Below are positions 969 to 60,878 of a stretch of 64,000 bases of DNA, piece by piece (the first letter of the stretch is position 1; the number at the start of each line of letters is the position of its first letter). The DNA lies in NCBI GenBank assembly GCA_944392445.1, contig CALXWT010000002.1, positions 9,367 through 73,366 on the forward strand. The letters are read 5' to 3'. The position numbers and the translations under genes were made by a program. Source of the stretch: an uncultured Clostridia bacterium (GTDB lineage: Bacteria > Bacillota > Clostridia > TANB77 > CAG-508). Under the pieces are notes generated by a model. It saw nothing but the letters and a program-made list of their open reading frames with translations, was not told the origin of the DNA and did no database searches.

Positions 969-1045
969 GCGCCCTTAGCTCAGTTGGTTAGAGCAACCGG
1001 CTCATAACCGGTAGGTCCAAGGTTCGAATCCTTGAGGGCGCACCA
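969..1045 (+). tRNA. tRNA-Met (anticodon CAT); could instead be the lysidine-modified tRNA-Ile2
   Basis: Cloverleaf GCGCCCT...AGGGCGC-A-CCA. Anticodon loop is ctCATaa, the T-loop is GGTTCGAATCC, and CCA is encoded. Confidence 0.85.
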
Positions 1046-1088
1046 TTTTTATTAAATAGATATTTTCTATTTAGTAATTTTATATTTT

Positions 1089-1174
1089 GGGTAGGTGGCC
1101 GAGTGGCTAAAGGCGGCAGACTGTAAATCTGTTCTCATTTGAGTACGATGGTTCGAATCCATCCCTGCCCACCA
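1089..1174 (+). tRNA. tRNA-Tyr (anticodon GTA), class II with long variable arm
   Basis: GGGTAGG acceptor stem pairs with CCTGCCC. Anticodon loop is ctGTAaa, the T-loop is GGTTCGAATCC, and CCA is encoded. Confidence 0.85.
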
Positions 1175-9474: not shown

Positions 9475-10476
9475 TTACTTCTTTCCTCTATCCAAAGTAT
9501 CTAAATTATCTAATGCCTTTCCTGTTCCTAAAGCTACGCATGATATTGCTTCCTGTGCAATCATAACATTTATTCCTGTTTTTACTTGCAATAGTTTATC
9601 TAATCCATCTATTAAGCATCCTCCACCTGTCATATATATTCCTCTATCACTTATGTCTGCCGCAAGTTCTGGCGGTGTTTTCTCCAGTACAGAGTGAACA
9701 CTATCTACTATCATCATTGCTGGTTCTATAAGTGCTTCTAACATTTCGCTTGAATGAATAGTTATGTTTTTAGGTAACCCAGTAATTAAGTCTCTTCCTC
9801 TTATTTCCATCTCTGTATCTTGTATTTTTGGGTAAACACAGCCAATATTTATTTTTAAATCTTCGGCCGTTCTTTCTCCTATCATTACATTGTGCTTTCT
9901 TTTTATATATTTTACAATTGCTTCATCAAATTTATCTCCTGCAACTTTTAAAGACTCACTAACTACAGAACCTCCTAAAGATATAACTGCAATGTCTGTT
10001 GTACCTCCACCAATATCTACTACCATATTTCCGCATGGCTTAGATATATCTATTCCAGCACCTATAGCAGCTGCAATAGGTTCTTCTATTAAGAATACTT
10101 TTCTTGCTCCTGCTTGTGAAGCTGCATCTATAACAGCCTTTTTTTCTACCTCAGTTACTTGTGATGGGATGCATATCATTATTCGTGGAGAGAACACAAA
10201 TTTACCGCATATTTTATTTATAAAATATTTTAACATTTTTTCTGTAACTGTATAATTTGAAATTACTCCATCCCTTAAAGGTCTTGTTGCTACAATATTT
10301 CCTGGTGTTCTACCAAGCATTCTTCTAGCTTCTTTTCCCACAGCTAAAACCTCACCTGTATTGTTATCTACTGCAACAACAGAAGGTTCTCTTAATACTA
10401 TACCCTTTCCTTTTACATACGCAATTACAGTTGCAGTTCCCAAATCTATGCCTATGTCTTGTCCCAACTTAAACAT
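9475..10476 (-). CDS. mreB: Rod-shape-determining protein MreB/Mbl (actin homolog); start moved to second Met
   Basis: MFKLGQDIGIDLGTATVIAYV... is preceded by RBS AAAGGAAAG. The first ATG of the track ORF has no RBS. Confidence 0.9.
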   Translation of the reverse strand: MFKLGQDIGIDLGTATVIAYVKGKGIVLREPSVVAVDNNTGEVLAVGKEARRMLGRTPGNIVATRPLRDGVISNYTVTEKMLKYFINKICGKFVFSPRIMICIPSQVTEVEKKAVIDAASQAGARKVFLIEEPIAAAIGAGIDISKPCGNMVVDIGGGTTDIAVISLGGSVVSESLKVAGDKFDEAIVKYIKRKHNVMIGERTAEDLKINIGCVYPKIQDTEMEIRGRDLITGLPKNITIHSSEMLEALIEPAMMIVDSVHSVLEKTPPELAADISDRGIYMTGGGCLIDGLDKLLQVKTGINVMIAQEAISCVALGTGKALDNLDTLDRGKK

Positions 10477-15654: not shown

Positions 15655-16395
15655 TTAAGACAACTCTCCAAATCTATTTTTAAACTCAAGACTTTTAAAA
15701 ACGTCATCTGGTGTCCCCTCTTTTATAACTTCTTTGTCTAGCAAAATCACTTTATCTGCGTATTTTTTTGCTAGCTCTAAATCATGTGATACTAATATTA
15801 TTGACATATCATATTCTGATTTTAATTTACTTATAATTTTATAGAATTCTTTTATTCCGTTTCTGTCAATGCCTGATACGGGCTCATCTAATATAAGTAA
15901 ATTTGGTGTAGGTTTTGTAGCTATTGCTATAAGCACTCTTTGTAATTCTCCACCTGATAAGTCCCCAATACTTTTATCTATTAATGCATCTGCTCCAAAG
16001 ATTTTTAAATGTTCTTTTACTTCATCATATATTTTCTTATCTTTTCTTAGGAATACTGGAATAAGTGTAATGCATGATGCGAACAAGTCGTAAACCGTTG
16101 TTGGCATGTGTCTTTCAATATTGATACTTTGTGGAACATATCCTATTTTTATTTTCTTAGTAACATTATCTTTTTGGTCTACGAACACAATATCTCCTGT
16201 ATGCTCTATTTCGCCCAAAATTGCTTTAAGCAATGTACTTTTTCCTGCACCATTTCTCCCTATAATAACAGTTAATTCTCCACAATGAATATGAATATTA
16301 ACGTCTTTTAATATTACATCTTTTCCTATTTTAACTCCAATATTATTTATTTTTGTACAGTGTAATCCACAAGCTTTCTCCATACACACCTCCAT
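15655..16395 (-). CDS. Metal ABC transporter ATP-binding protein (ZnuC/MntA-like)
   Basis: Walker A GRNGAGKST, signature LSGGELQRV and Walker B LLILDEP are present. Confidence 0.85.
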   Translation of the reverse strand: MEVCMEKACGLHCTKINNIGVKIGKDVILKDVNIHIHCGELTVIIGRNGAGKSTLLKAILGEIEHTGDIVFVDQKDNVTKKIKIGYVPQSINIERHMPTTVYDLFASCITLIPVFLRKDKKIYDEVKEHLKIFGADALIDKSIGDLSGGELQRVLIAIATKPTPNLLILDEPVSGIDRNGIKEFYKIISKLKSEYDMSIILVSHDLELAKKYADKVILLDKEVIKEGTPDDVFKSLEFKNRFGELS

Positions 16396-19131: not shown

Positions 19132-19196
19132 ACTATCTATAACTTTAAGAATAGCTTTACAAATAATTAAATTCTTAAGGAAAGGAGTTTTATTTT

Positions 19197-19400
19197 TTAG
19201 CGCCTGGACACAGAGTTAAGCAATGCAAATAATAGATTTGTTGTAATTCTGCTAGCTTTTAGCAAAGTTCAAAGCACCTGTGTTGACGAGGTAGAGACTT
19301 ATCGAAAGATTCGGCGGATGGTCTCTTGGTACTAGATTACTACCATAAATATTAGTCAAAACCTTGCAGTGATGCAAGTATACAAAGCTAATAGAGTAGT
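19197..19400 (+). ncRNA. glmS ribozyme (GlcN6P-dependent self-cleaving riboswitch) in the glmS 5' UTR
   Basis: A^GCGCCTGGAC at the cleavage site. The conserved core gacgaggtagagacttatcgaaagattcggcggatggtctc closely matches the Bacillus glmS ribozyme core GACGAGGATGGAGGTTATCGAATTTTCGGCGGATGCCTCC. It sits directly upstream of glmS. The end coordinate is approximate. Confidence 0.85.
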
Positions 19401-19564
19401 CTTTATTTGTAATGCTTTCTTGAAATTAAATGCTAAGAAAAGCAATCTACACGCAATAATATGAATAATTATTAGCATAGTTTTATAGTTTTTTAGCACA
19501 AAAATGTGTAACTTATTAAAGTTTATTTAATAAAGGTACATATATGTTTTAAGGAGGTATTTTT

Positions 19565-21418
19565 ATGTGTGGTATTGTAGGATACGTTGGTAGCAAAAAA
19601 GCTACACCTATATTAATTGATGGTCTTTTATGTTTGGAGTACAGAGGTTATGACTCTGCCGGAATTGCAACTATAGAAAAAGATGTAATTAAGGTTATGA
19701 AGGATAAAGGTAGAGTAAATAACTTGTATAATTTGGATGGAATAAATGATTTAGAAGGAACTGTAGGTATTGCGCATACTAGATGGGCAACACACGGTAA
19801 ACCATCTAAAGAAAATTCTCATCCTCACTTGGACAATAGCAATACATTTGCAGTTGTTCATAATGGTATTATCGAAAATTATTCTGAACTAAAAGATTTT
19901 TTAAGTTTAAAAAGATATAATTTTATTTCTCAAACAGATACAGAGGTTATTCCTAATTTAATACATTATCATTATACAAACGGACCTGAATCTGTAATTG
20001 AGGATAATTATGAAAGATTTTTAACTGCTGTAAAGTCTGCCGTACAAGATTTAAAAGGAAGCTATGCAGTTGAGGTTATTTCCCCTCTATGCCCTGATGA
20101 GGTTATTGTTGTTAGAAAAGATAGCCCACTTGTTATAGGAAAGGGCACAGATGGAAATTATATAGCATCAGATATTCCTGCTATATTAAAGTACACCAAA
20201 GATTTTTATTTATTAGATGATAATGAATTTGCAGTAGTTACAGCTGATAAAGTTAAATTTTATGATAATAGTTTAACAGAGCATAACAAAGCTATTAAAA
20301 ATATTGAATGGGATGCAAATGCAGCTGGAAAAGATGGATATGAAGATTATATGCTTAAAGAAATTTTTGAACAACCAACAGCTATACGAGAAACAATCGG
20401 TTCAAGATTTCGTTTAGGCGAAAAATGTTCTTTTGATGATATAGAAATTTCTAAAGAATATTTAAGTAAAGTAAATAAAATATACATTGTTGCTTGTGGT
20501 ACAGCAATGCATGCTGGATTAACAGGTAAAACCTTAATAGAAAAACTTTGCAAAATTCCTACTGTTGTAGATATTGCATCAGAATTTAGGTACAGAGACC
20601 CACTTATTGATGAAAATACACTATGTATATATATAAGTCAATCTGGTGAAACTGCTGATACTATTGCTGCTTTAAAGCTTGCTAAGTCTAAAGGTGCTAA
20701 AACACTTGCAATCTCTAATGTTATAGGAAGTTCAATTACAAGAGAAGCTGATTATTCTATATATACTCATGCAGGTCCAGAAATTGCCGTTGCTTCTACC
20801 AAAGCATATACCTCACAAGTTGTACTAATTGCAATTCTTGCAATGTATTTTGCAGAAATATTAGGAACATGTGATGAAGCTTGCATAGAAGAGTTAAAGG
20901 CTGATTTAATAGACTTACCTTCTAAGGTAGAACAAATATTGGATAACACAGATGTAATTAAAACTTTTGCAAATAAAGTATATACAGAAAAAGATATGTT
21001 CTTTTTAGGTAGAGGTACAGATTATAATGTTGCTCTAGAGGGCTCTTTAAAATTAAAAGAGATAACATATATTCACTCTGAAGCAAATGCAGCTGGAGAA
21101 TTAAAACATGGTCCTATTGCACTTATAGAAAATGGTGTAACAGTTATAGGAATTATTACTGACGAGAAATTAGTTGAAAAATCTATTAGTAATATTCAAG
21201 AAGTTGTTACAAGAGGAGCTAAAACTTTAATTATTACAAATCAAATATTACCTAACAGCCATTTTGATTATGTAATAAATATTCCAAAGACTCCCCCTCT
21301 AATTTCGCCAATACTTTCTGTTGTTCCAATGCAACTTTTGTCTTACTATATTGCTAAGGCTAAGGGATTAGATGTAGATAAGCCACGTAACCTTGCTAAA
21401 TCGGTTACAGTAGAGTAG
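19565..21418 (+). CDS. glmS: Glutamine--fructose-6-phosphate aminotransferase (isomerizing)
   Basis: MCGIVGYVG... is the Ntn amidotransferase start. Two SIS domains follow, and the protein ends ...VTVE. Confidence 0.95.
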   Translation: MCGIVGYVGSKKATPILIDGLLCLEYRGYDSAGIATIEKDVIKVMKDKGRVNNLYNLDGINDLEGTVGIAHTRWATHGKPSKENSHPHLDNSNTFAVVHNGIIENYSELKDFLSLKRYNFISQTDTEVIPNLIHYHYTNGPESVIEDNYERFLTAVKSAVQDLKGSYAVEVISPLCPDEVIVVRKDSPLVIGKGTDGNYIASDIPAILKYTKDFYLLDDNEFAVVTADKVKFYDNSLTEHNKAIKNIEWDANAAGKDGYEDYMLKEIFEQPTAIRETIGSRFRLGEKCSFDDIEISKEYLSKVNKIYIVACGTAMHAGLTGKTLIEKLCKIPTVVDIASEFRYRDPLIDENTLCIYISQSGETADTIAALKLAKSKGAKTLAISNVIGSSITREADYSIYTHAGPEIAVASTKAYTSQVVLIAILAMYFAEILGTCDEACIEELKADLIDLPSKVEQILDNTDVIKTFANKVYTEKDMFFLGRGTDYNVALEGSLKLKEITYIHSEANAAGELKHGPIALIENGVTVIGIITDEKLVEKSISNIQEVVTRGAKTLIITNQILPNSHFDYVINIPKTPPLISPILSVVPMQLLSYYIAKAKGLDVDKPRNLAKSVTVE

Positions 21419-45058: not shown

Positions 45059-47398
45059 TTAATTATTTTTCATCAACTTTTCTTCTGCTCTTTGCACTGC
45101 TTCTCTCTCATCCCAGAAGTATTGCACTCCTTTTATTTCTTGATATTGTTCGTGTCCTTTGCCTATTAAAAGTATAATATCTCCCTCTTGTGCATTTTTC
45201 ATTGCATATTCTATTGCTTCCTGTCTATCATCTATTGTTATATATTTTCCATTGCTTCTATTTAAGCCTGTTATAATATCGTTATTTATAGATTCCATTT
45301 CTTCAAAACGTGGGTTGTCCTCTGTAAGGATAGTAAGACCTGCATATTTTCCAGATATTTCTCCCATATCAAATCTTCTATCTCTTGCTCTGTTTCCTCC
45401 ACCACCAAAGATGCATACTATTCTTTTTGGCTTGTACTCCATAATTGTTTCCATCAAATTTGTCATCTCATCTTCATTATGAGCATAATCTATAATTAAC
45501 TTGTACTTATCGTTTGAAACTGCAAGCTCCATTCTTCCTTTTACGTATGCTGTTTCTAATGCTTTTTTCATTGAATCTACCTTTAGCCCCAATTCATTTG
45601 CTATTGTTACAGCACATAAGGCATTATATACAGAGAATCTACCTGGGATTGCGACTTCAAATTTATCATTTACTTTTCCTGTTACATCAAAGCCCATTCC
45701 TAAGAACTTGTCTGTCATAATAAATTTGATGTTTTCTGCTCTTAAGTCTACATTTTCTGAATTTATACCAAACTTTATTATATCGCAAGTATGGTTTTTA
45801 GTAACGTTTTCCCAATTCTTATCATCTACATTTATTATTCCAGTTTTGCATTTTTGGAATAACAAACTTTTGCAATACATATATTCTTCAAAGCTTTTGT
45901 GCTCATTTGGTCCTATATGCTCTTTAGAAATATTTGTAAATACCCCATAGTCAAATGTAAATCCATCTACTCTATGCATTTTTAGTCCTTGTGAAGACAC
46001 TTCCATTATTGCATATTTGCAACCCTCTTCTACCATTTCTCTAAATAGCTTTTGGATTTCATAATTTTCTGGTGTAGTATTATGAAGAGTTATTTTTCTC
46101 TTTCCTATAAATGCACCAATTGTGCCAATTAGCCCAGCCTTTTCCCCATTTTCTTCAATCATTTTCTTTAAAATAGTTGAAGTTGAAGTTTTTCCTGCTG
46201 TTCCTGTAATTCCTACAACAGTTAGCTCTTTTGCTGGATATTTAAAATATGCTGATGAGATTTCTGCCATTGCTTCTCTTGAAGATTTTACCTTTATTAC
46301 TGTAACATCTTCATTAGGAATATCTATGTCTTTTTCTACCACTAATACTTTTGCACCCTTTTCTATTACATCCGGTATATATTTATGTGAGTCTGATGTA
46401 GAACCAACTTTTGCTATATACATATCGTTTGGCTCTACTTTTCTAGAATCGTCTTTAATGTCTGAAATATCTACATCTAGGCTTCCTTTTACAAGCTCAT
46501 AATCCACATTTTGTAACAAATCTTGCAATTTTGTAGTTCTATATTTGTTTATTATATCGTCTACATCAATTTCTGACTCGAATACTGTATGTGATGGGCC
46601 TTTCATAAACATTTTTCCTGTTTCTTCGTCCCAGTTAGTTTCTAGTATTCCACCTATTTGGTGAACACTTACTTTTCTATCGCATCTACCTGTTAAAACT
46701 GCTGCAACTGTAGCAGTACAACAACCTGTACCACAACCTATTGTTTCTCCTGTTCCTCTTTCCCATTCTCTCATTTTTATATTGTTTCTATCTATTACTT
46801 GGGCAAAAGTTACATTTGTTTTGTTTGGGAACAAGTCTATTTTATACTCAATAGCTTTTCCGTATTTTTCTACATCAAAATTATCTACATCATCTATAAA
46901 CATTACACAATGAGGATTTCCCCACGATACTGCAGTAATTTTAAAAGTTCTGTCTAGTATTTTTACCTCTTGCTCTACAAATTCTTTCAAGTTTGTATTT
47001 ACTGGTATTAATTTTGTATCTAATACTGGCTTTCCAATATTTGCTTCAATATTAACTGCTTTTCCATTTTCTACAGTTAATTTAACATGTTGAATTCCAC
47101 CAAGTGTTTCTATTTTTAGTTCTGTTTTATCTGTTAGTTTGTGGTCATATACATATTTACTTAAAGACCTTAAAGCATTGCCACACATTTCTCCTTCTGT
47201 TCCGTCTGGATTGAACATTCTCATTCTAAAATCTGCCACATCTGATTTGCAAATTAGCACTAGTCCATCTGAACCTACTCCAAAGTGCCTGTTGCTTATA
47301 TATTTTGCAAGCTCGTGCACATTATTTATTTTTTGATTTATTGCATCTATATATACGTAGTCATTGCCATAGGCTTGCATTTTTGTAAATCTTGTCAC
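45059..47398 (-). CDS. Fusion of diaminopimelate epimerase (DapF, N-terminal) with a MurE-type Mur ligase (C-terminal; carries the DNPR meso-DAP specificity motif)
   Basis: N-terminus MTRFTKMQAYGNDYVYID...GNPHCVMF...GTGCCTA... is DapF. C-terminus ...VVGITGTAGKTSTS...DYAHNEDEM...ILTEDNPRFE...GGGGNRARD... has Mur ligase motifs. Single 779-aa ORF. Confidence 0.8.
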   Translation of the reverse strand: MTRFTKMQAYGNDYVYIDAINQKINNVHELAKYISNRHFGVGSDGLVLICKSDVADFRMRMFNPDGTEGEMCGNALRSLSKYVYDHKLTDKTELKIETLGGIQHVKLTVENGKAVNIEANIGKPVLDTKLIPVNTNLKEFVEQEVKILDRTFKITAVSWGNPHCVMFIDDVDNFDVEKYGKAIEYKIDLFPNKTNVTFAQVIDRNNIKMREWERGTGETIGCGTGCCTATVAAVLTGRCDRKVSVHQIGGILETNWDEETGKMFMKGPSHTVFESEIDVDDIINKYRTTKLQDLLQNVDYELVKGSLDVDISDIKDDSRKVEPNDMYIAKVGSTSDSHKYIPDVIEKGAKVLVVEKDIDIPNEDVTVIKVKSSREAMAEISSAYFKYPAKELTVVGITGTAGKTSTSTILKKMIEENGEKAGLIGTIGAFIGKRKITLHNTTPENYEIQKLFREMVEEGCKYAIMEVSSQGLKMHRVDGFTFDYGVFTNISKEHIGPNEHKSFEEYMYCKSLLFQKCKTGIINVDDKNWENVTKNHTCDIIKFGINSENVDLRAENIKFIMTDKFLGMGFDVTGKVNDKFEVAIPGRFSVYNALCAVTIANELGLKVDSMKKALETAYVKGRMELAVSNDKYKLIIDYAHNEDEMTNLMETIMEYKPKRIVCIFGGGGNRARDRRFDMGEISGKYAGLTILTEDNPRFEEMESINNDIITGLNRSNGKYITIDDRQEAIEYAMKNAQEGDIILLIGKGHEQYQEIKGVQYFWDEREAVQRAEEKLMKNN

Positions 47399-54774: not shown

Positions 54775-55128
54775 TTAAACAGTATGTAGAAAATTTTTGG
54801 CAGTAGCTATTGCTTTTTTTCTGCTATCTCCATTTTGTGCAATTAAATAACACGCGTAACGAGTAAGTTTTATGTCATCAATTATTTTCTTCGCTCCCTT
54901 TGGCATTTTTATCGTTTTGCCGACGTCGGCAAAATGTTCCCAAATATTGATATTACTGTTTTTACAAGATTCTTTTGCTTTATCAATTACTTTCCCAAAA
55001 TTTCCCCATTTACTATATTCTAACATTGTCATTAGTTCTCTAGCATACCAGAATTCAACCCCGTTTTCATCTAGATGTTTAATACTCTCAAAATCTTTTT
55101 CGGTTTTGTTTACTAAATTATTTGTCAT
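54775..55128 (-). CDS. DinD-like DNA-damage-inducible protein
   Basis: ...GVEFWYARELMTMLEYSKWGNFGKVIDKAKESC... and ...LTRYACYLIAQNGDSRKKAIA... resemble E. coli DinD (match recalled from memory). Confidence 0.6.
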   Translation of the reverse strand: MTNNLVNKTEKDFESIKHLDENGVEFWYARELMTMLEYSKWGNFGKVIDKAKESCKNSNINIWEHFADVGKTIKMPKGAKKIIDDIKLTRYACYLIAQNGDSRKKAIATAKNFLHTV

Positions 55129-55366: not shown

Positions 55367-55828
55367 TCATCTTTTAATAAACAAACTCTTTATCTTATTT
55401 AATATTCTTTTAAAGATATTCTCTTTATATTCTACAATTTGTTTTTCATTATTATTTGTCTTTACTTCATTCTCATTTAATTTTGTTGTTTTGTTTATGC
55501 TTTTATTTGCAAATACATCAGTATTATACATCTGCTGTTTTTTTAGTTCGTTTTTCTGTCTCGCTTCATTTTGCATTTTTATAATTTTCGTTCTTTGCTC
55601 TGGTGTTGCTAGATAATCTCTAAACAAATTAAATAGTATTGCTTTTGTTTCTGGAAGCATTGGTTGGTCTTTTAATTCTAATTCATCATCTAAGAAATAC
55701 TCATATTCCTTATTTCTGTTAGTATCTAATGTTTCTATTACTTCGGGAGGAATTTTATTGTACTCTTCTTCATCTAAATCTTGCAAAATTGTATAAACTT
55801 CTGTATATGCATTTCTACGGTTGTTCAC
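55367..55828 (-). CDS. Hypothetical protein (153 aa) immediately downstream of, and overlapping, the giant helicase gene
   Basis: Clean ORF. A 5' remnant of a paralog sits after the second helicase gene (61800-61936). Confidence 0.5.
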   Translation of the reverse strand: MNNRRNAYTEVYTILQDLDEEEYNKIPPEVIETLDTNRNKEYEYFLDDELELKDQPMLPETKAILFNLFRDYLATPEQRTKIIKMQNEARQKNELKKQQMYNTDVFANKSINKTTKLNENEVKTNNNEKQIVEYKENIFKRILNKIKSLFIKR

Positions 55829-58800
55829 CTATATCCTCCCCTCTCTTTTGTTCTCTTTGCTTTACTAATTCTTGTAATTCTGTATATGCTCTATCTGCAT
55901 TTTCCTGGTCTGTTAATGAACTAATTGAAGCTTCTACTATTTCTTTTGCTGTGCGATTTCTTTTTGGTTTTGGCTCTATTCCATATTGTCTCAATGTAGC
56001 TATTTTTTCTCTGTATTCTTCTGGTACATTTTCTATTGGTTTCCCTACATATTCTTGTAATATTTTATATTCGTTTGATTTTATCCACCTATTGTACAAA
56101 TTCACTTCTTCTTTTTGCTCTTCGGTCATTTGGTCTACTGTTAAGTTTTTCCTTTTTCCATTTTCTCCTTTTTCAGAGAAAGCACCTTTCATTATTCGTC
56201 CATTTGCTTCTATAAATTCTATTACCTGTTCATATGTTGTTTTTTTCGGTTCTAATCCATGGTCTCTCAATGTTGCTATTTTTTCTCTATATTCTTCTGG
56301 CACATTTTCTATTGGTTGCCCTGCATATTCTTGCAATATTTTATATTCGTCTGAAATATGCCACCTTTTGCACAACTTTGCTTCTTTTTTTTGCTCTTCG
56401 GTCATTTGATCTCTTGTTAATTGTTTCCTTTTTCCATTTTCTCCTTTCTCATAGAAAGCACTGTTCACTATTCGTCCATGTTCTTCTATAAATTCTATTA
56501 CCTGTTCATATATTGGTTTTTCTGGTTCTAAGCCATATTGCCTCAATGTAGCTATTTTTTCTCTGTATTCTTCTGGCACATTTTCTATTGGTTGCCCTGC
56601 ATATTCTTGCAATATTTTATATTCGTTTGAGTTCAGCCACCTTTTGTACAATCTTACTTCTTCTTTTTGCTCTTCGGTCATTTGGTCTACTGTTAATTTT
56701 TTTCTTTTTCCATTTTCTTCTTTTTCAGAGAAATAGCCGTTCATTATTCGTCCATTTGCTTCTATAAATTCTATTACCTGTTCATATATTGGCTTTTCTG
56801 GTTCCAATCCATATTCTCTTAATATAGTTATTTTGTCTCTGTATTCTTCTGGCACATTTTCTATCGATTGTCCTGCATATTCTTGCAATATTTTATATTC
56901 GCCTGAATGAATCCACCTTTTGTACAATCTTGCTTCTTCTTTTTGCTCTTCGGTCATTTGGTCTACTGTTAATTGTTTCATTTTTCCATCTTCTCCTTTT
57001 TCAGAGAAATAGCTTTTCATTATTCGTCCATTTGCTTCTATAAATTCTATTACCTGTTCATATGTTGGTTTTTCTGGTTCTAAGCCATATTGCCTCAATG
57101 TAGCTATTTTTTCTCTGTATTCTTCTGGCACATTTTCTATAGGTTGCCCTGCATATTCTTGCAATATTTTATATTCGTCTGATTTATACCACCTAGCATA
57201 TAAATTTACTTCTTCTTTTTGCTCGTCAGTCATTTGGTCTACTACTAATCTTTTGCCATCTATTTTGAATGAACTTCTCATTATTTGCCCATGTTTTTTT
57301 ATAAATTCTATTACCTGTTCATATGTTGTCTTTTTCGGTTTACCATCAACTTCATCTTCTAACTCCACAAAATCTTTCAATAGCCCTATAAGTTCAAATG
57401 GTCCAACACTTTTTCCTGAAAAAACTCTTTCTTGTGTTTCTCCACTCCTTACTATTCTGTCTGGTAAATCTATCTGCCATAAATCTATTTGACTTCCTAG
57501 TCTTATTATTTGCTCTATCTCTTCTACTTGCTTTTCATTTAATCCTTCAAATTCTTGTTCTAAATATCCTTTGTATTTATTTTGTATTTCTTTTAATACT
57601 CTCGCATATCCTGTTTCTTCTTTATCTGTGCTATTTATGTCTGGTAAAACTCCATCATGTCTTTGCGTCCAATCTAATATAAGACCTAACATTTGTATGT
57701 CGTCTTTCTCTGTTATTTCATTATCCCAATTTACTTTTATTGTGTTGTTTACTAAGTCTATTACTACTGGCCTATCCTCATCTTTTGTTGGTTTATCTGG
57801 GTTTTCTGAATATATTACTCTTCCTAGTTGTTGCAAGTATAGTATTCGTGAATTTTCATCTAGTGGTCTTAGCCATATTATTCCATCTAGCTTATCTAAA
57901 TGTAACCCTTCATTTGCTTTATTCATCACTAGCATAAATTCTGTTTCTTCTGTATTGCTATTTTTGAATTCTTCTAACCTTCTAGCATTTTCTTTGTCTC
58001 CATATTCTCCAAGCATTGAATGAAAATTAGGCTTTATCCCTGAACCTTTAAAGTATTCTGCTATTTGTTTTTCATAATCTTCTATTTTTGTTTTTCCTTT
58101 TTTTCTTCCTATTACATTTCCATCTTCATCTTCCAAATCTTCTAAAACCGGTAAAAATACTATATATTTGCCACCTTTTTTCACATTTGCTTGTAGAATT
58201 TGAGGTATTCCCTCTGCATTTTCTACATTTCTTCTCAAAGACTCATATTCTTCTAATTTTTCGTTTCTATCTTGTATATCTTCTAATTGGTCTATTTTAT
58301 CTTTTAATTCATCTAAACTTCCATCCATCTTTAAACTATATGCGCAACTTACAAGCTTAGGATTTACCACTAACCCCATTCTTATTGCATTTGTTAAACT
58401 CATATTCATTGCAATGTGTTTTCCATTTACTGCTTCTCTATTTGTGTAACCTAGCCTTTGTGCTATTTCATTTGCCATATCTATTCCGTCTGCATCTCTT
58501 CTTGGGGTTGCTGTTAGTCCTAATACTTTCGTACTTTCTGGTTGATTATCTAGTAATGTGTTTAATCTATCTCCCCATTCTTTTGCTCCTGTTCTATGTA
58601 ACTCATCTAGTACTACAAAGCCATATTGTTTGTTTATTGTGGCTTTTCCACCTCTTGCAAGTAAACTCGAGTATGTTGCAAATTTTAGTTTTGGAAATAC
58701 ATCTTTTATTATATCATCTTTACTTCTTCGAATTGTATTTACTGGTCCGTGAATATATTTTATAATATTGTCTTTCATTTGCTCTAATATCTCATTTTGT

Positions 58801-60878
58801 GGTGCTAAGTATAATATTTCTTCATTTTGGTGTTCCATCATTTCGGCTAAAGCAACAAAACTCTTTCCTCCACCTGTTGGTACTATTACTGATGTAAATC
58901 TGTTTTCTTGCAATATTTCATCTGCTCTGTCTTTTGCTCTTTGTTGGTATGGTCGTAGTTGTATTCCTGTTCCTTGTACATCATAATATCCTAAAAATCT
59001 TTCTATTCTCTCTATTGATAAATTTTGACTATAGATTGATTCATTTTGTATTTGTCTATTTTTACTTATGTTTTCTTCATTTATGCCTCTTGTATTTCTT
59101 GCATCATCTCTATTTCCAGTTTGTCTATTATTTTCACCAATACTATTAACATATTCTGCTATCATTCTGTCATATTGTTCTAATCTTTTTGCTTTTACTG
59201 TTTCTGGTGTGTCATTTTCGGTAATTTCAAAATCATTACTTCTTGTTACCATATTTAGTAGAATTGTTGGAATAGCTTCTCTTGTGATGCCTTGTGCTTC
59301 TAATTTTTGATATAGCTCTACACAATATTCTGCTTGTATACGGTTAATTAAGTTATTCCTTTCTGCTGGTGTAAATTCTTCTATTCCTATTTTTGACCAG
59401 TCATATAGTGAAAATATTGCTTCTGCATAATATTCTTCTTTGCTTATTTGCTCATTTCTTTGTGTTTTTGAAAATGTGCTACTCATTATATCTCTTACAT
59501 TTGATAGCCCACCATTTTCCATTATTTCTATTTGCTCTGCTTCTGTTAAGTCTTTTATTTTGTTTATTAGTTCTGCTTCTTCTCCTCTTAAATCCAATGA
59601 AATTGACTCACTAAGTTTAACTCCCCTATTGCTTTGCCTTGTAAGTATTTCTGGCTCTATTCTAAAACCATTGTCTGATATATATTGTATAATTTCTCTG
59701 TATCTTGGATTATTTCCTGTTATTTGCTCCAATATTCTTGCTAGTTCTTTTGCATTTGACTGCGACCTTGCTAAATAGAACAAATTCTTTACTATCGAAT
59801 TTGCTTGTCCATATTCCACTTTTCCGTCTGTTAAGTTATACATTTCTTCTATGCTTATGTTGTCTCGTAAGCTATATTCTCTTTCAAGTATGCTGTTTGC
59901 TGGTATTTCTATTGTTGCATCTGTTCCAGCTATTCCTATTGTTTTACCTTCACTCGCGAAGTTAATTACTTCTTTTTTTAGATCATCTACTATCTGCCTA
60001 TCTTGCCCATCAACCTGTTGCAATAGTGCAAATATATCTACTATTTCTTTTGGTACATCTATTATCTCGTCTCCTTCTATATCTCCATAGTGAACTACCT
60101 CTAATGATGAAAACGCATTTCCTATTGTTTGCACCAATAAATTATTATTTGCTGTATGTGGAATTACAGGCGCCATTCCTCCTACTCTTTCAAGCAATGT
60201 TAGTTTTGCAATTATCTTATTCTTCTCTAATGATTGTTCCCCGTTTAATGCTTGATAACTACTAATTCTCGCAATTGGTGCCCTATATGTTATTCCTTTT
60301 CTTAATTTTGCTTTACTTGGGTCTATTGGCTCTGCTGATGTATACCTTGTCTCTATTGCTCTTTTTAATTCTTCTTCTGTTTTACTATTATCTATTTCAC
60401 TTAGTGTTTCTTTCAATTTGCTATCAGCTGGCATTAAAGAAATGTATTCTTCTATTCTCTTTGCCACTTCTTCTAGCATATATTGCCCTGCATTTATGGT
60501 CTTTTCGCCCAATTCTCTTTTTGGCACTTTTACCATTATATATCTATCTTTATAACTTCCTCTTCCATAGGAAATAGACACATTACTATTGCTTGAAAGT
60601 GATATACAGTTTGTATCCTTTCTGTAATGCATCTTTATGTGGTCATATACTTGCTCTAAACTTATTTCTGAATCTTTATTATATTTTGGTGCTTCATTTT
60701 CTGGTTTTTCTTCATATCTTTCTCTATCTGTTCTTATTCGTGCAATATTTCCGTTTTCATCTAGCACTGTTCCGTTTTCTATATCTTCATTATCTGCCAT
60801 ATTTAGTGCACGAATAAAGTAATAGTTTTCTTCATCTTCTATTATATTAAAATTTTCTATACCTAATACATTTTCCAT
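55815..60878 (-). CDS. Giant (1687 aa) multidomain protein: roughly 600-aa N-terminal region of unknown function, central SF2 DExH helicase, and six C-terminal ~92-aa tandem repeats (helicase-associated-domain-like)
   Basis: Helicase motifs VPTGGGKSF (I), VVLDELHR (II), LGLTATP (III) and QQLGRV (VI) are present. Six in-frame repeats of TYEQVIEFIEANGRIM...EYAGQPIENVPEEYREKIATLRQYGLEPEKP follow. Confidence 0.8.
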   Translation of the reverse strand: MENVLGIENFNIIEDEENYYFIRALNMADNEDIENGTVLDENGNIARIRTDRERYEEKPENEAPKYNKDSEISLEQVYDHIKMHYRKDTNCISLSSNSNVSISYGRGSYKDRYIMVKVPKRELGEKTINAGQYMLEEVAKRIEEYISLMPADSKLKETLSEIDNSKTEEELKRAIETRYTSAEPIDPSKAKLRKGITYRAPIARISSYQALNGEQSLEKNKIIAKLTLLERVGGMAPVIPHTANNNLLVQTIGNAFSSLEVVHYGDIEGDEIIDVPKEIVDIFALLQQVDGQDRQIVDDLKKEVINFASEGKTIGIAGTDATIEIPANSILEREYSLRDNISIEEMYNLTDGKVEYGQANSIVKNLFYLARSQSNAKELARILEQITGNNPRYREIIQYISDNGFRIEPEILTRQSNRGVKLSESISLDLRGEEAELINKIKDLTEAEQIEIMENGGLSNVRDIMSSTFSKTQRNEQISKEEYYAEAIFSLYDWSKIGIEEFTPAERNNLINRIQAEYCVELYQKLEAQGITREAIPTILLNMVTRSNDFEITENDTPETVKAKRLEQYDRMIAEYVNSIGENNRQTGNRDDARNTRGINEENISKNRQIQNESIYSQNLSIERIERFLGYYDVQGTGIQLRPYQQRAKDRADEILQENRFTSVIVPTGGGKSFVALAEMMEHQNEEILYLAPQNEILEQMKDNIIKYIHGPVNTIRRSKDDIIKDVFPKLKFATYSSLLARGGKATINKQYGFVVLDELHRTGAKEWGDRLNTLLDNQPESTKVLGLTATPRRDADGIDMANEIAQRLGYTNREAVNGKHIAMNMSLTNAIRMGLVVNPKLVSCAYSLKMDGSLDELKDKIDQLEDIQDRNEKLEEYESLRRNVENAEGIPQILQANVKKGGKYIVFLPVLEDLEDEDGNVIGRKKGKTKIEDYEKQIAEYFKGSGIKPNFHSMLGEYGDKENARRLEEFKNSNTEETEFMLVMNKANEGLHLDKLDGIIWLRPLDENSRILYLQQLGRVIYSENPDKPTKDEDRPVVIDLVNNTIKVNWDNEITEKDDIQMLGLILDWTQRHDGVLPDINSTDKEETGYARVLKEIQNKYKGYLEQEFEGLNEKQVEEIEQIIRLGSQIDLWQIDLPDRIVRSGETQERVFSGKSVGPFELIGLLKDFVELEDEVDGKPKKTTYEQVIEFIKKHGQIMRSSFKIDGKRLVVDQMTDEQKEEVNLYARWYKSDEYKILQEYAGQPIENVPEEYREKIATLRQYGLEPEKPTYEQVIEFIEANGRIMKSYFSEKGEDGKMKQLTVDQMTEEQKEEARLYKRWIHSGEYKILQEYAGQSIENVPEEYRDKITILREYGLEPEKPIYEQVIEFIEANGRIMNGYFSEKEENGKRKKLTVDQMTEEQKEEVRLYKRWLNSNEYKILQEYAGQPIENVPEEYREKIATLRQYGLEPEKPIYEQVIEFIEEHGRIVNSAFYEKGENGKRKQLTRDQMTEEQKKEAKLCKRWHISDEYKILQEYAGQPIENVPEEYREKIATLRDHGLEPKKTTYEQVIEFIEANGRIMKGAFSEKGENGKRKNLTVDQMTEEQKEEVNLYNRWIKSNEYKILQEYVGKPIENVPEEYREKIATLRQYGIEPKPKRNRTAKEIVEASISSLTDQENADRAYTELQELVKQREQKRGEDIGEQP
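55960..57340. repeat. In-frame tandem array, about 276 bp x 6, within the giant helicase gene
   Basis: ctattacctgttcatat recurs near 56221, 56491, 56771, 57041 and 57311. Protein repeats are 85-95% identical. Confidence 0.8.

Follow-up and report, generated by a model that had tools for sequence, protein, structure and literature searches.

Tandem helical repeats attached to helicases are widespread and almost unstudied. TALE, PUF, PPR and mTERF proteins are tandem-repeat arrays that bind nucleic acids, and long repeats also occur in alpha C/Rib, Esp and Bap, antigens that are secreted and anchored to the cell wall, vary under immune pressure and have almost 100% identical repeats. The family nearest to the case described here is the helicase-associated (HA) domain, Pfam PF03457. 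It is reported to bind DNA, according to the title of Mills et al. (2013) as cited in PMC12191111, and BVU_0683(627-691) of Bacteroides vulgatus is a solved example from the same work. We analysed a stretch of 64,000 nucleotides (the window) from an uncultured Clostridia bacterium (assembly GCA_944392445.1, contig CALXWT010000002.1, positions 9,367 to 73,366). In this window, the gene for a superfamily 2 (SF2) helicase carries a five-copy tandem repeat in its C-terminal tail. The array is probably a multivalent binding platform built from a small folded domain, with occasional unequal crossing-over between its units.

From the N- to the C-terminus, the gene product consists of an N-domain, the SF2 helicase, a linker, the five-unit array and a C-terminal peptide:

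55815..60878, minus strand: repeat-bearing gene, 1687 residues, from the open reading frame (ORF) list and translation; the only long ORF across the array
58980..60878, minus strand: N-terminal domain (N-domain), residues 1-633 (about 630 residues), strongly conserved
57744..58964, minus strand: SF2 helicase core, residues 639-1045, from Pfam and motifs in the translation
57339..57743, minus strand: conserved linker ending in '...LKDFVELEDEVD', common to members with different repeat families
55974..57338, minus strand: array of five tandem units R1-R5, residues 1181-1635, 261 + 4 x 276 nucleotides
57078..57338, minus strand: R1, 87 residues (1181-1267), with a 15-nucleotide (5-codon) deletion
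56802..57077, minus strand: R2, 92 residues (1268-1359)
56526..56801, minus strand: R3, 92 residues (1360-1451)
56250..56525, minus strand: R4, 92 residues (1452-1543)
55974..56249, minus strand: R5, 92 residues (1544-1635)
55815..55973, minus strand: C-terminal peptide, residues 1636-1687 (52 residues), 'KEIVEASISSLTD...GEDIGEQP', and stop codon

Tandem Repeats Finder reported the dominant array of the region at 55971..57243 (period 276, 4.6 copies, 87% matches, no indels, score 1921), and a repeat search found five copies spaced by exactly 276 nucleotides. The unit borders were set with a hidden Markov model (HMM) built from the five translated units. Compared in pairs, the units are 80-90% identical in nucleotides and 71-85% in amino acids. 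The array is far above chance expectation, and the same array is present in independent assemblies of related strains. A first-pass annotation of the sequence had described a long in-frame tandem repeat here, and both search programs and the translation bear this out. Its reading of the motifs LY.RW, EYKILQEY and ENVPEEYREKI was also correct, the last being the most conserved part of the unit family-wide. Its other figures need revision. It counted six copies where we found five; the 1380-nucleotide span that it gave equals 5.0 units, and a sixth, degenerate unit in the linker is hinted at by a 5-bit match. The identity of 85-95% that it gave is 80-90% when measured pairwise. Translation and the Pfam core confirmed that the repeats lie in frame within the C-terminal tail of a helicase, the coding strand being minus. 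ORFs antisense to the repeats (plus strand 55729..56409 and others) were ruled out, since conservation and the ratio of nonsynonymous to synonymous divergence (dN/dS) favour the minus-strand frame.

The protein has 702 homologs at E<=1e-5, the best of them 94% identical. Its core is matched by Pfam ResIII (8e-20, 71.8 bits) and DEAD (1e-15, 57.9 bits) at residues 639-796, both above their cut-offs, and by Helicase_C at residues 937-1021 with 18.1 bits, under the 23.5-bit cut-off that relatives pass. With the Walker A 'PTGGGKS', the DExH motif II 'DELH', the motif III 'TATP' and a C-terminal RecA-like lobe, it is an SF2 helicase of the ResIII/DEAD superfamily. Among NCBIfam models, RadD (1.4e-15) and XPB (9e-8) matched the core far under their equivalog cut-offs, and the plasmid-borne sequences closest to the core bear the annotation 'Helicase associated domain protein'. 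The N-domain had no match in Pfam, PHROG, PADLOC, NCBIfam or PDB sequences. It has many invariant columns among relatives that are 41-91% identical, and its conserved stretches include NYYFFRALNMADN, 'IRTDRERYE' and YDHIKMHYRKDTNCISLSSN. The N-domain could be the effector part of the protein. The AlphaFold2 (AF2) model of this domain is of low confidence, with a mean predicted local distance difference test score (pLDDT) of 61.7 and values <50 for residues 1-130. An initial guess that it is ADP-ribosyltransferase-like ('YYFIRAL', 'CISLSSN') found no support in that model or in Pfam and PDB, where it had zero matches. In the linker, residues 1067-1118 ('ILDWTQRHDGVLPD...') gave the 5-bit weak match mentioned above, to the first half of the repeat profile, and may be a degenerate, fixed 'zeroth' HA-like unit in all family members.

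The repeat unit is a well-defined domain. The consensus of 36-91 non-redundant homolog units, ..KTtYEeVIEFLE.hnGrlP...F..nGK.L...EMTeEe..E.NLY.RW..S.E.KIL..Y.G.PIE.VPEEYREKI..LR.yGLG., is retained among proteins that are just 45-50% identical overall; L51, P76 and R80 are invariant, and W55, Y67 and Y79 are at least 90% conserved. AF2 folded one unit with a pLDDT of 94.9 into a helix, a beta-hairpin and three helices. Between units of the window, dN/dS is 0.33-0.69 overall; the N-half has a value of 0.65 and the C-half one of 0.21. The C-half (EYKILQEY..PIENVPEEYREKIA.LR.YGL) is the invariant scaffold. These results indicate that the unit folds and is under purifying selection, and they support the interaction module that the first-pass annotation had suggested; what such a module would bind is considered below. 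Pfam gave no meaningful match for any of 36 diverse units, sub-threshold matches of TarS_linker and YggL to the unit or protein being left unused, and PHROGs gave nothing significant for the unit or the whole protein. A search of PDB sequences with the unit profile gave a composite weak match to TFIIH p52/Tfb2 (E 0.0015) with no significant stretch, which was treated as chance. p52 binds XPB. The NCBIfam model NF040910 ('CD1375 family protein', 34 residues) matched the unit motif 'IENVPEEYREKI' with 33.9 bits summed (cut-off 22.5), which hints that free-standing mini-proteins share this motif. No single stretch of that match was significant and the name carries no function, so it was not used to identify the unit.

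What relates the unit to known families is a set of bridging proteins. The unit profile recognised the repeats of protein P0227 at E 5e-20 (whole library), with an hhalign probability of 95.8% (E 6.6e-9, columns 6-58); with 39.2 bits, P0227 itself lies above the HA gathering score of 28.4 bits. Among the weaker matches of the profile is P0252, which has Pfam HA at 1.3e-60. The first-pass annotation had proposed an alignment of the repeats to the HA HMM. Done directly, this gave no PF03457 match at E<=10; the indirect route through P0227 was positive. The units of another protein recognised by the window-unit HMM, P0069, pass Pfam Myb_DNA-binding (69.5 bits) where helix 4 of one unit meets helix 1 of the following one, and score 24.8 bits with HNH_repeat (PF18780; cut-off 26) over helix 1, the hairpin and helix 2. 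The window units themselves gave no Pfam match to Myb_DNA-binding, helix-turn-helix (HTH) or HNH_repeat, and this resemblance is confined to neighbours such as P0069 and the paralog described below. The N-half of the unit thus appears distantly related to the HA and HNH-repeat class, as judged by sequence profiles and through the bridging protein only. We read the unit as a previously unclassified family whose N-half lies in the HA/HNH-repeat neighbourhood, rather than as an established member of HA.

The distribution of the unit is narrow. An exhaustive HMMER search with the unit profile over 1.84 billion cluster representatives found only 200 proteins at E<=0.001, many of them short fragments. 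In the longer matches that were examined, the array lies mostly C-terminal to a helicase of the same family or to a different SF2 helicase of the ResIII type, whether or not the N-domain is present; three examined matches (P0205, P0246 and P0251) had no visible helicase. Among the best 120 homologs of the window protein, 56, besides the window protein itself, bear the window-type unit in 2-10 copies. The relatives in species-representative genomes all come from metagenome-assembled or uncultured organisms, almost all labelled Clostridia or Clostridium and many from gut or faeces. A phage origin is not supported, because IMG/VR contains no relative of the helicase gene and a phage database gave matches to the core only, at about 24% identity. 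A plasmid database likewise shares the helicase core alone.

The array fills a fixed slot between the conserved linker and the conserved C-terminal peptide, and other helical repeat families occupy this slot in relatives. Proteins P0115, P0119 and P0120 share their N-domain, helicase, linker and C-terminal peptide with the window protein and have 5-6 canonical HA units in the slot, and other members of the best 120 homologs have an HTH-like type (92-110 residues), an 84-90-residue type or HA. The linker is the same before different repeat families in the tandem paralog and in P0011, and is recognisably related in P0115 and P0090. The C-terminal peptide, whose ends read KEIVEASISSL...DIGEQP, also terminates members with other repeat types (the paralog, P0115, P0011, P0029, P0031, P0032 and P0090), and the tails of the family are 158-850 residues long. 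Single-linkage clustering of the tails was uninformative, and a period analysis of each protein was used instead. The paralog lies upstream in the same window:

61923..63995, minus strand: tandem paralog fragment (C-lobe and tail), with tblastn matches inside the helicase genes of 40+ loci
62087..62885, minus strand: second tandem array in the paralog tail, 282 nucleotides x 2.8 copies, 88% matches (Tandem Repeats Finder), 94-residue HTH-like units

Its translation has the linker and the C-terminal peptide in common with the main gene and carries a different repeat cassette, the units of which gave PHROG matches to transcriptional regulators and HTH proteins down to 5e-6 and a weak match to Pfam HTH_3.

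For comparison of alleles, the units of the window were named A to E. Every full-length member listed for a cluster of 61 sequences has the structure ABCDE, with unit-for-unit identity of 92-100%, mostly 98-100%. Three ABCDE sequences of this cluster were seen on 20, 16 and 12 contigs, and ABCDE also occurs in loci L005 and L006 and in one copy on a 529-kb contig. In close strains most alleles have five units, while others have four, in three different structures, or three; four variant sequences were found. They are A-[B/C]-D-E (P0004, in two independent assemblies from different samples with SPAdes-style and MEGAHIT-style contig names), A-B-[C/D]-E (P0003), A-D'-D-E (P0002) and A-D-E (P0005). 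Hybrid units switch parent cleanly, which points to unequal crossing-over. All mappable crossovers fall in the conserved C-half, where the units share identical runs of 29-63 nucleotides. In distant orthologs, units are more like their own neighbours than their positional counterparts, and this indicates concerted evolution; in some relatives adjacent units are up to 0.96 identical. Synonymous divergence (dS) among the window units is ~0.27-0.32, so the array is old and mostly stable. The natural alleles with three, four and five units are all in frame and retain the C-terminal peptide. The array is thus a slow length polymorphism that arises through occasional unequal crossovers, not a fast on/off switch.

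We propose the following model, which we consider probable as a whole. The array would act as a multivalent platform for a substrate or target, most likely a nucleic acid and possibly a protein, and would position or recruit the helicase motor. The variable N-half, with its hairpin and Trp helix, would give every unit its own contact surface. The 29-63-nucleotide identical stretches permit occasional RecA-type unequal crossing-over between units, from which come in-frame alleles of three, four or five units within the species and, family-wide, 2-10 units and concerted evolution. Selection on every unit as a protein keeps the DNA repeats in place. The idea that the array binds nucleic acids is drawn indirectly, from the types of cassette found in the slot and the reported DNA binding of HA. 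The data demonstrate the anatomy, the confidence of the fold, the selection, the distribution, the recombinant alleles and the exchange of cassettes, while the binding function, its ligand and a role in defence are inferred.

Several results weigh against the model. Each window unit is mildly acidic, with a net charge of -1 to -6 (array isoelectric point 5.25; family mean ~0), and an acidic or neutral charge is unlike a non-specific DNA-binding array, which weakens the case for nucleic acids. PF03457 did not match the whole protein (E<=1), a single unit or linker+R1 (E<=10) or the 36 diverse units (E<=1), whereas the positive controls P0115, P0119, P0120 and P0252 scored 86-202 bits with the same model (gathering score 28.4 bits). 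When the unit profile was aligned with hhalign to the canonical HA units of P0252, the probability was 42% (E 2.6e-4) over only 23 columns, and with those of P0115, P0119 and P0120 the alignment covered 15 columns and was not significant (P 0.096). Foldseek with the unit model gave no PDB or BFVD match at E<=0.001, and its list of 50 PDB matches did not include the nuclear magnetic resonance (NMR) structure of HA; that entry was also missing from the results when PDB sequences were searched with two canonical HA units. PADLOC-DB v2.0.0 gave only weak local Cas3-core matches for the helicase (<=27 bits) and none for the small gene that overlaps its stop codon. Lastly, the alleles of three and four copies come from short-read metagenome assemblies, and only P0004 is backed by two assemblies.

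Because the near-neutral to acidic units weaken the nucleic-acid case, recruitment of a protein is a serious rival, even though we hold it to be clearly the less likely of the two. In this explanation the units are a scaffold that binds a protein, which may be the product of the adjacent partner gene, the N-domain of the same protein or a protein of an invading phage or plasmid, and the diversification of the N-half tracks these targets. The partner gene is the following:

55367..55828, minus strand: partner gene, 153 residues, from the ORF list; its start overlaps the helicase stop by 14 nucleotides

From this overlap, the partner is predicted to be translationally coupled to the helicase in a two-gene operon. 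The partner protein had no Pfam, PADLOC, NCBIfam or PHROG match. Its homologs lie directly downstream of the helicase in many loci irrespective of the tail type, and in most loci the small ORF (118-153 residues) overlaps the helicase stop by 11-14 nucleotides. Some distant loci have a different partner of 118-144 residues with a common 'YKENIF.KI..FFKK' motif. A protein-binding scaffold would agree with this coupling, with the charge of the partner (N-half acidic, net -10; C-half basic, net +10), with the neutral to acidic units, with the N-half of the unit being far less constrained than the C-half (dN/dS 0.65 vs 0.21) and with the resemblance of the island to a conflict locus. It is opposed by the alternative cassettes of the slot, all of which are of nucleic-acid-binding types (HA, HTH-like and Myb-like), and by dN/dS below 1, with no sign of positive selection. 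Moreover, the partner stays constant while the cassette type changes, and it is therefore unlikely to be the specific ligand of the units.

The surroundings of the gene bear on a further explanation. The following features separate the two helicase genes of the window:

61064..61731, minus strand: toxin-antitoxin-like pair between the two helicase genes, from Pfam and NCBIfam
61294..61731, minus strand: DUF4258 protein
61064..61330, minus strand: YgiT/MqsA-type zinc-finger protein

In strains of the same species the helicase gene is at the same site beside ldh, and its upstream neighbours vary, being DUF4258 and the MqsA-like gene or MNT and HEPN, plus one extra paralog, intact or broken; loci L003 and L045 have the MNT/HEPN pair in place of the DUF4258/MqsA-like pair. 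The gene is thus in a strain-variable, toxin-antitoxin-flanked chromosomal island, and since the island is variable and rich in toxin-antitoxin genes, a role in conflict or defence is suggested. It is conceivable, and in our view unlikely, that the helicase, the N-domain and the partner form an undescribed two-gene anti-phage or anti-plasmid system in which specificity is set by the exchangeable repeat cassette. Every unit would then use its variable N-half to read part of a nucleic-acid or protein target, and specificity would be retuned through shuffling, gain and loss of units and swaps of whole cassettes between paralogs.

A Bro-N/DinD-like ORF of 117 residues (54775..55128, minus strand) lies downstream of the partner gene. 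It shows similarity to PADLOC PDC-S13 and to the N-terminal end of a model for type I specificity subunits, and it looks truncated because the homologous gene in L003 and L004 has 265 residues.

The first-pass annotation had called the repeat-bearing frame essential-looking. This impression is not sustained: the frame belongs to a variable island between toxin-antitoxin modules, is confined to a narrow range of uncultured Clostridia of the gut, has paralogs in tandem and carries a frameshift in some assemblies. In L045, the 529-kb contig, both tandem helicase copies share a +1 insertion after codon ~717 (9730..9790 and 15864..15924; CGGAAGAAGAAAAGATGAC vs CGAAGAAGTAAAGATGAT in the window, where the equivalent position is ~58690..58750). 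The insertion splits each gene into 746 and 887/898 residues, and the 887-residue product is found on 10 contigs. The truncated '887-aa' cluster members gave a first impression of pseudogenes, which was traced to the +1 insertion, identical in both tandem copies. The insertion may be a real frameshift, may reflect gene conversion from one copy to the other or may stem from a systematic error of assembly.

The first-pass annotation had also taken the array for a plausible phase- or length-variation locus. A contingency locus, in which units are often gained and lost within a population and function is thereby switched or tuned over short periods, would profit from the identical runs of 29-63 nucleotides, which can support recombination, and alleles of three, four and five units do occur among close strains. 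Nevertheless, we regard it as improbable. The unit length of 276 nucleotides is 3 x 92, so a change of copy number causes no frame or on/off switching. The ABCDE order (92-100% identity) dominates the 61-member cluster on dozens of contigs, including the 529-kb contig, and the units are old by their dS, with just four variant sequences. A between-strain count that is mostly fixed at five, in the same unit order, argues against high rates of copy change. Phase variation is therefore not supported. Of the claim of length variation, the part that stands is the existence of alleles of different length among close strains; fast population-level switching is improbable. The related remark that the copy number can vary without touching the helicase held good, as the alleles with hybrid units demonstrate.

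Another explanation is that the array is a passive spacer or ruler, which sets the distance between the motor and the C-terminal peptide as the real functional element, so that unit identity is irrelevant. The peptide and the linker are indeed conserved while the type and length of the array vary (tails of 158-850 residues). A spacer would have no use for a well-defined unit fold, nor for a unit that is strongly conserved even among distant proteins, whose L, P and R never vary, whose W and Y are conserved and whose C-half has a dN/dS of 0.21. We consider this explanation very improbable. That the array or its copy number is a product of mis-assembly is scarcely credible: tandem repeats are prone to short-read collapse and the alleles of three and four copies are on few contigs each, but the five distinguishable units are reproduced in many independent assemblies, the frame is intact with its units under purifying selection, and the four-unit P0004 was recovered by two different assemblies from different samples.

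The window is chromosomal DNA of a Firmicute with 30% G+C and contains a glmS ribozyme, tRNAs, ldh and Mur ligase genes. Its strand bias changes around 18-24 kb. The glmS ribozyme (89 bits; 19188..19403, plus strand) precedes an ORF at 19565..21418, and a tRNA-Met/tRNA-Tyr pair is at 969..1174 on the plus strand. A 779-residue ORF (45059..47398, minus strand) has DAP epimerase (DapF) domains and a complete Mur ligase (MurE-like) module; it is apparently a DapF-Mur ligase fusion, with a single gene call in L001 too.

By itself, the finding adds an unclassified variant to the helicase-associated repeat tails; its repeat dynamics are ordinary, and it is not a switch. The locus offers a natural series, in which at least four repeat families occur in one slot of a single helicase scaffold and recombinant alleles of three, four and five units can be identified, and it provides a high-confidence predicted fold for a unit family that is absent from the databases searched. 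If the array sets substrate or target specificity, the series would show how an SF2 motor is retargeted by cassette swap and resizing, and it could be a lead to a new module of the defence type in uncultured Clostridia of the gut.

Compared with known systems, the helicase resembles the XPB, RadD and ResIII SF2 helicases of defence and repair in its ResIII/DEAD core match and its sub-threshold RadD, XPB and Cas3-core scores. It differs from them in that no PADLOC system model fits and in that its N-domain and partner are without matches in the libraries searched. Like HA domains, the units are short and helical and follow a bacterial SF2 helicase on its C-terminal side in several tandem copies, and they share with HA an N-half pattern of an aromatic-x3-hydrophobic helix, 'G-R-x-P' and then 'L-x-x-W'; true HA units occupy the same slot in sister proteins, and P0227 matches both profiles. 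Compared with HA, however, the window units are ~25 residues longer and include an additional helix and an inserted beta-hairpin that bears 'MTEEQKEE', and they have the distinctive invariant C-half 'PIENVPEEYREKIA.LR.YGL' and no direct PF03457 match. Likeness to HNH_repeat (PF18780), which is associated with homing endonucleases, and to Myb/SANT repeats exists by transitivity through P0069 only. With TALE, PUF, PPR and mTERF proteins there is a functional analogy, in that helical, near-identical units combine a conserved scaffold with a variable part and recombination alters their number. The window units are much longer than those (92 residues), number only 2-10 per protein and lack code-like hypervariable residues. 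Finally, alpha C/Rib, Esp and Bap also have in-frame whole-domain repeats of a few hundred nucleotides, whose copy number differs between strains by unequal homologous recombination. The protein described here differs from them in being a cytoplasmic helicase, whose units are 80-90% identical and individually recognisable and whose unit count is mostly fixed.

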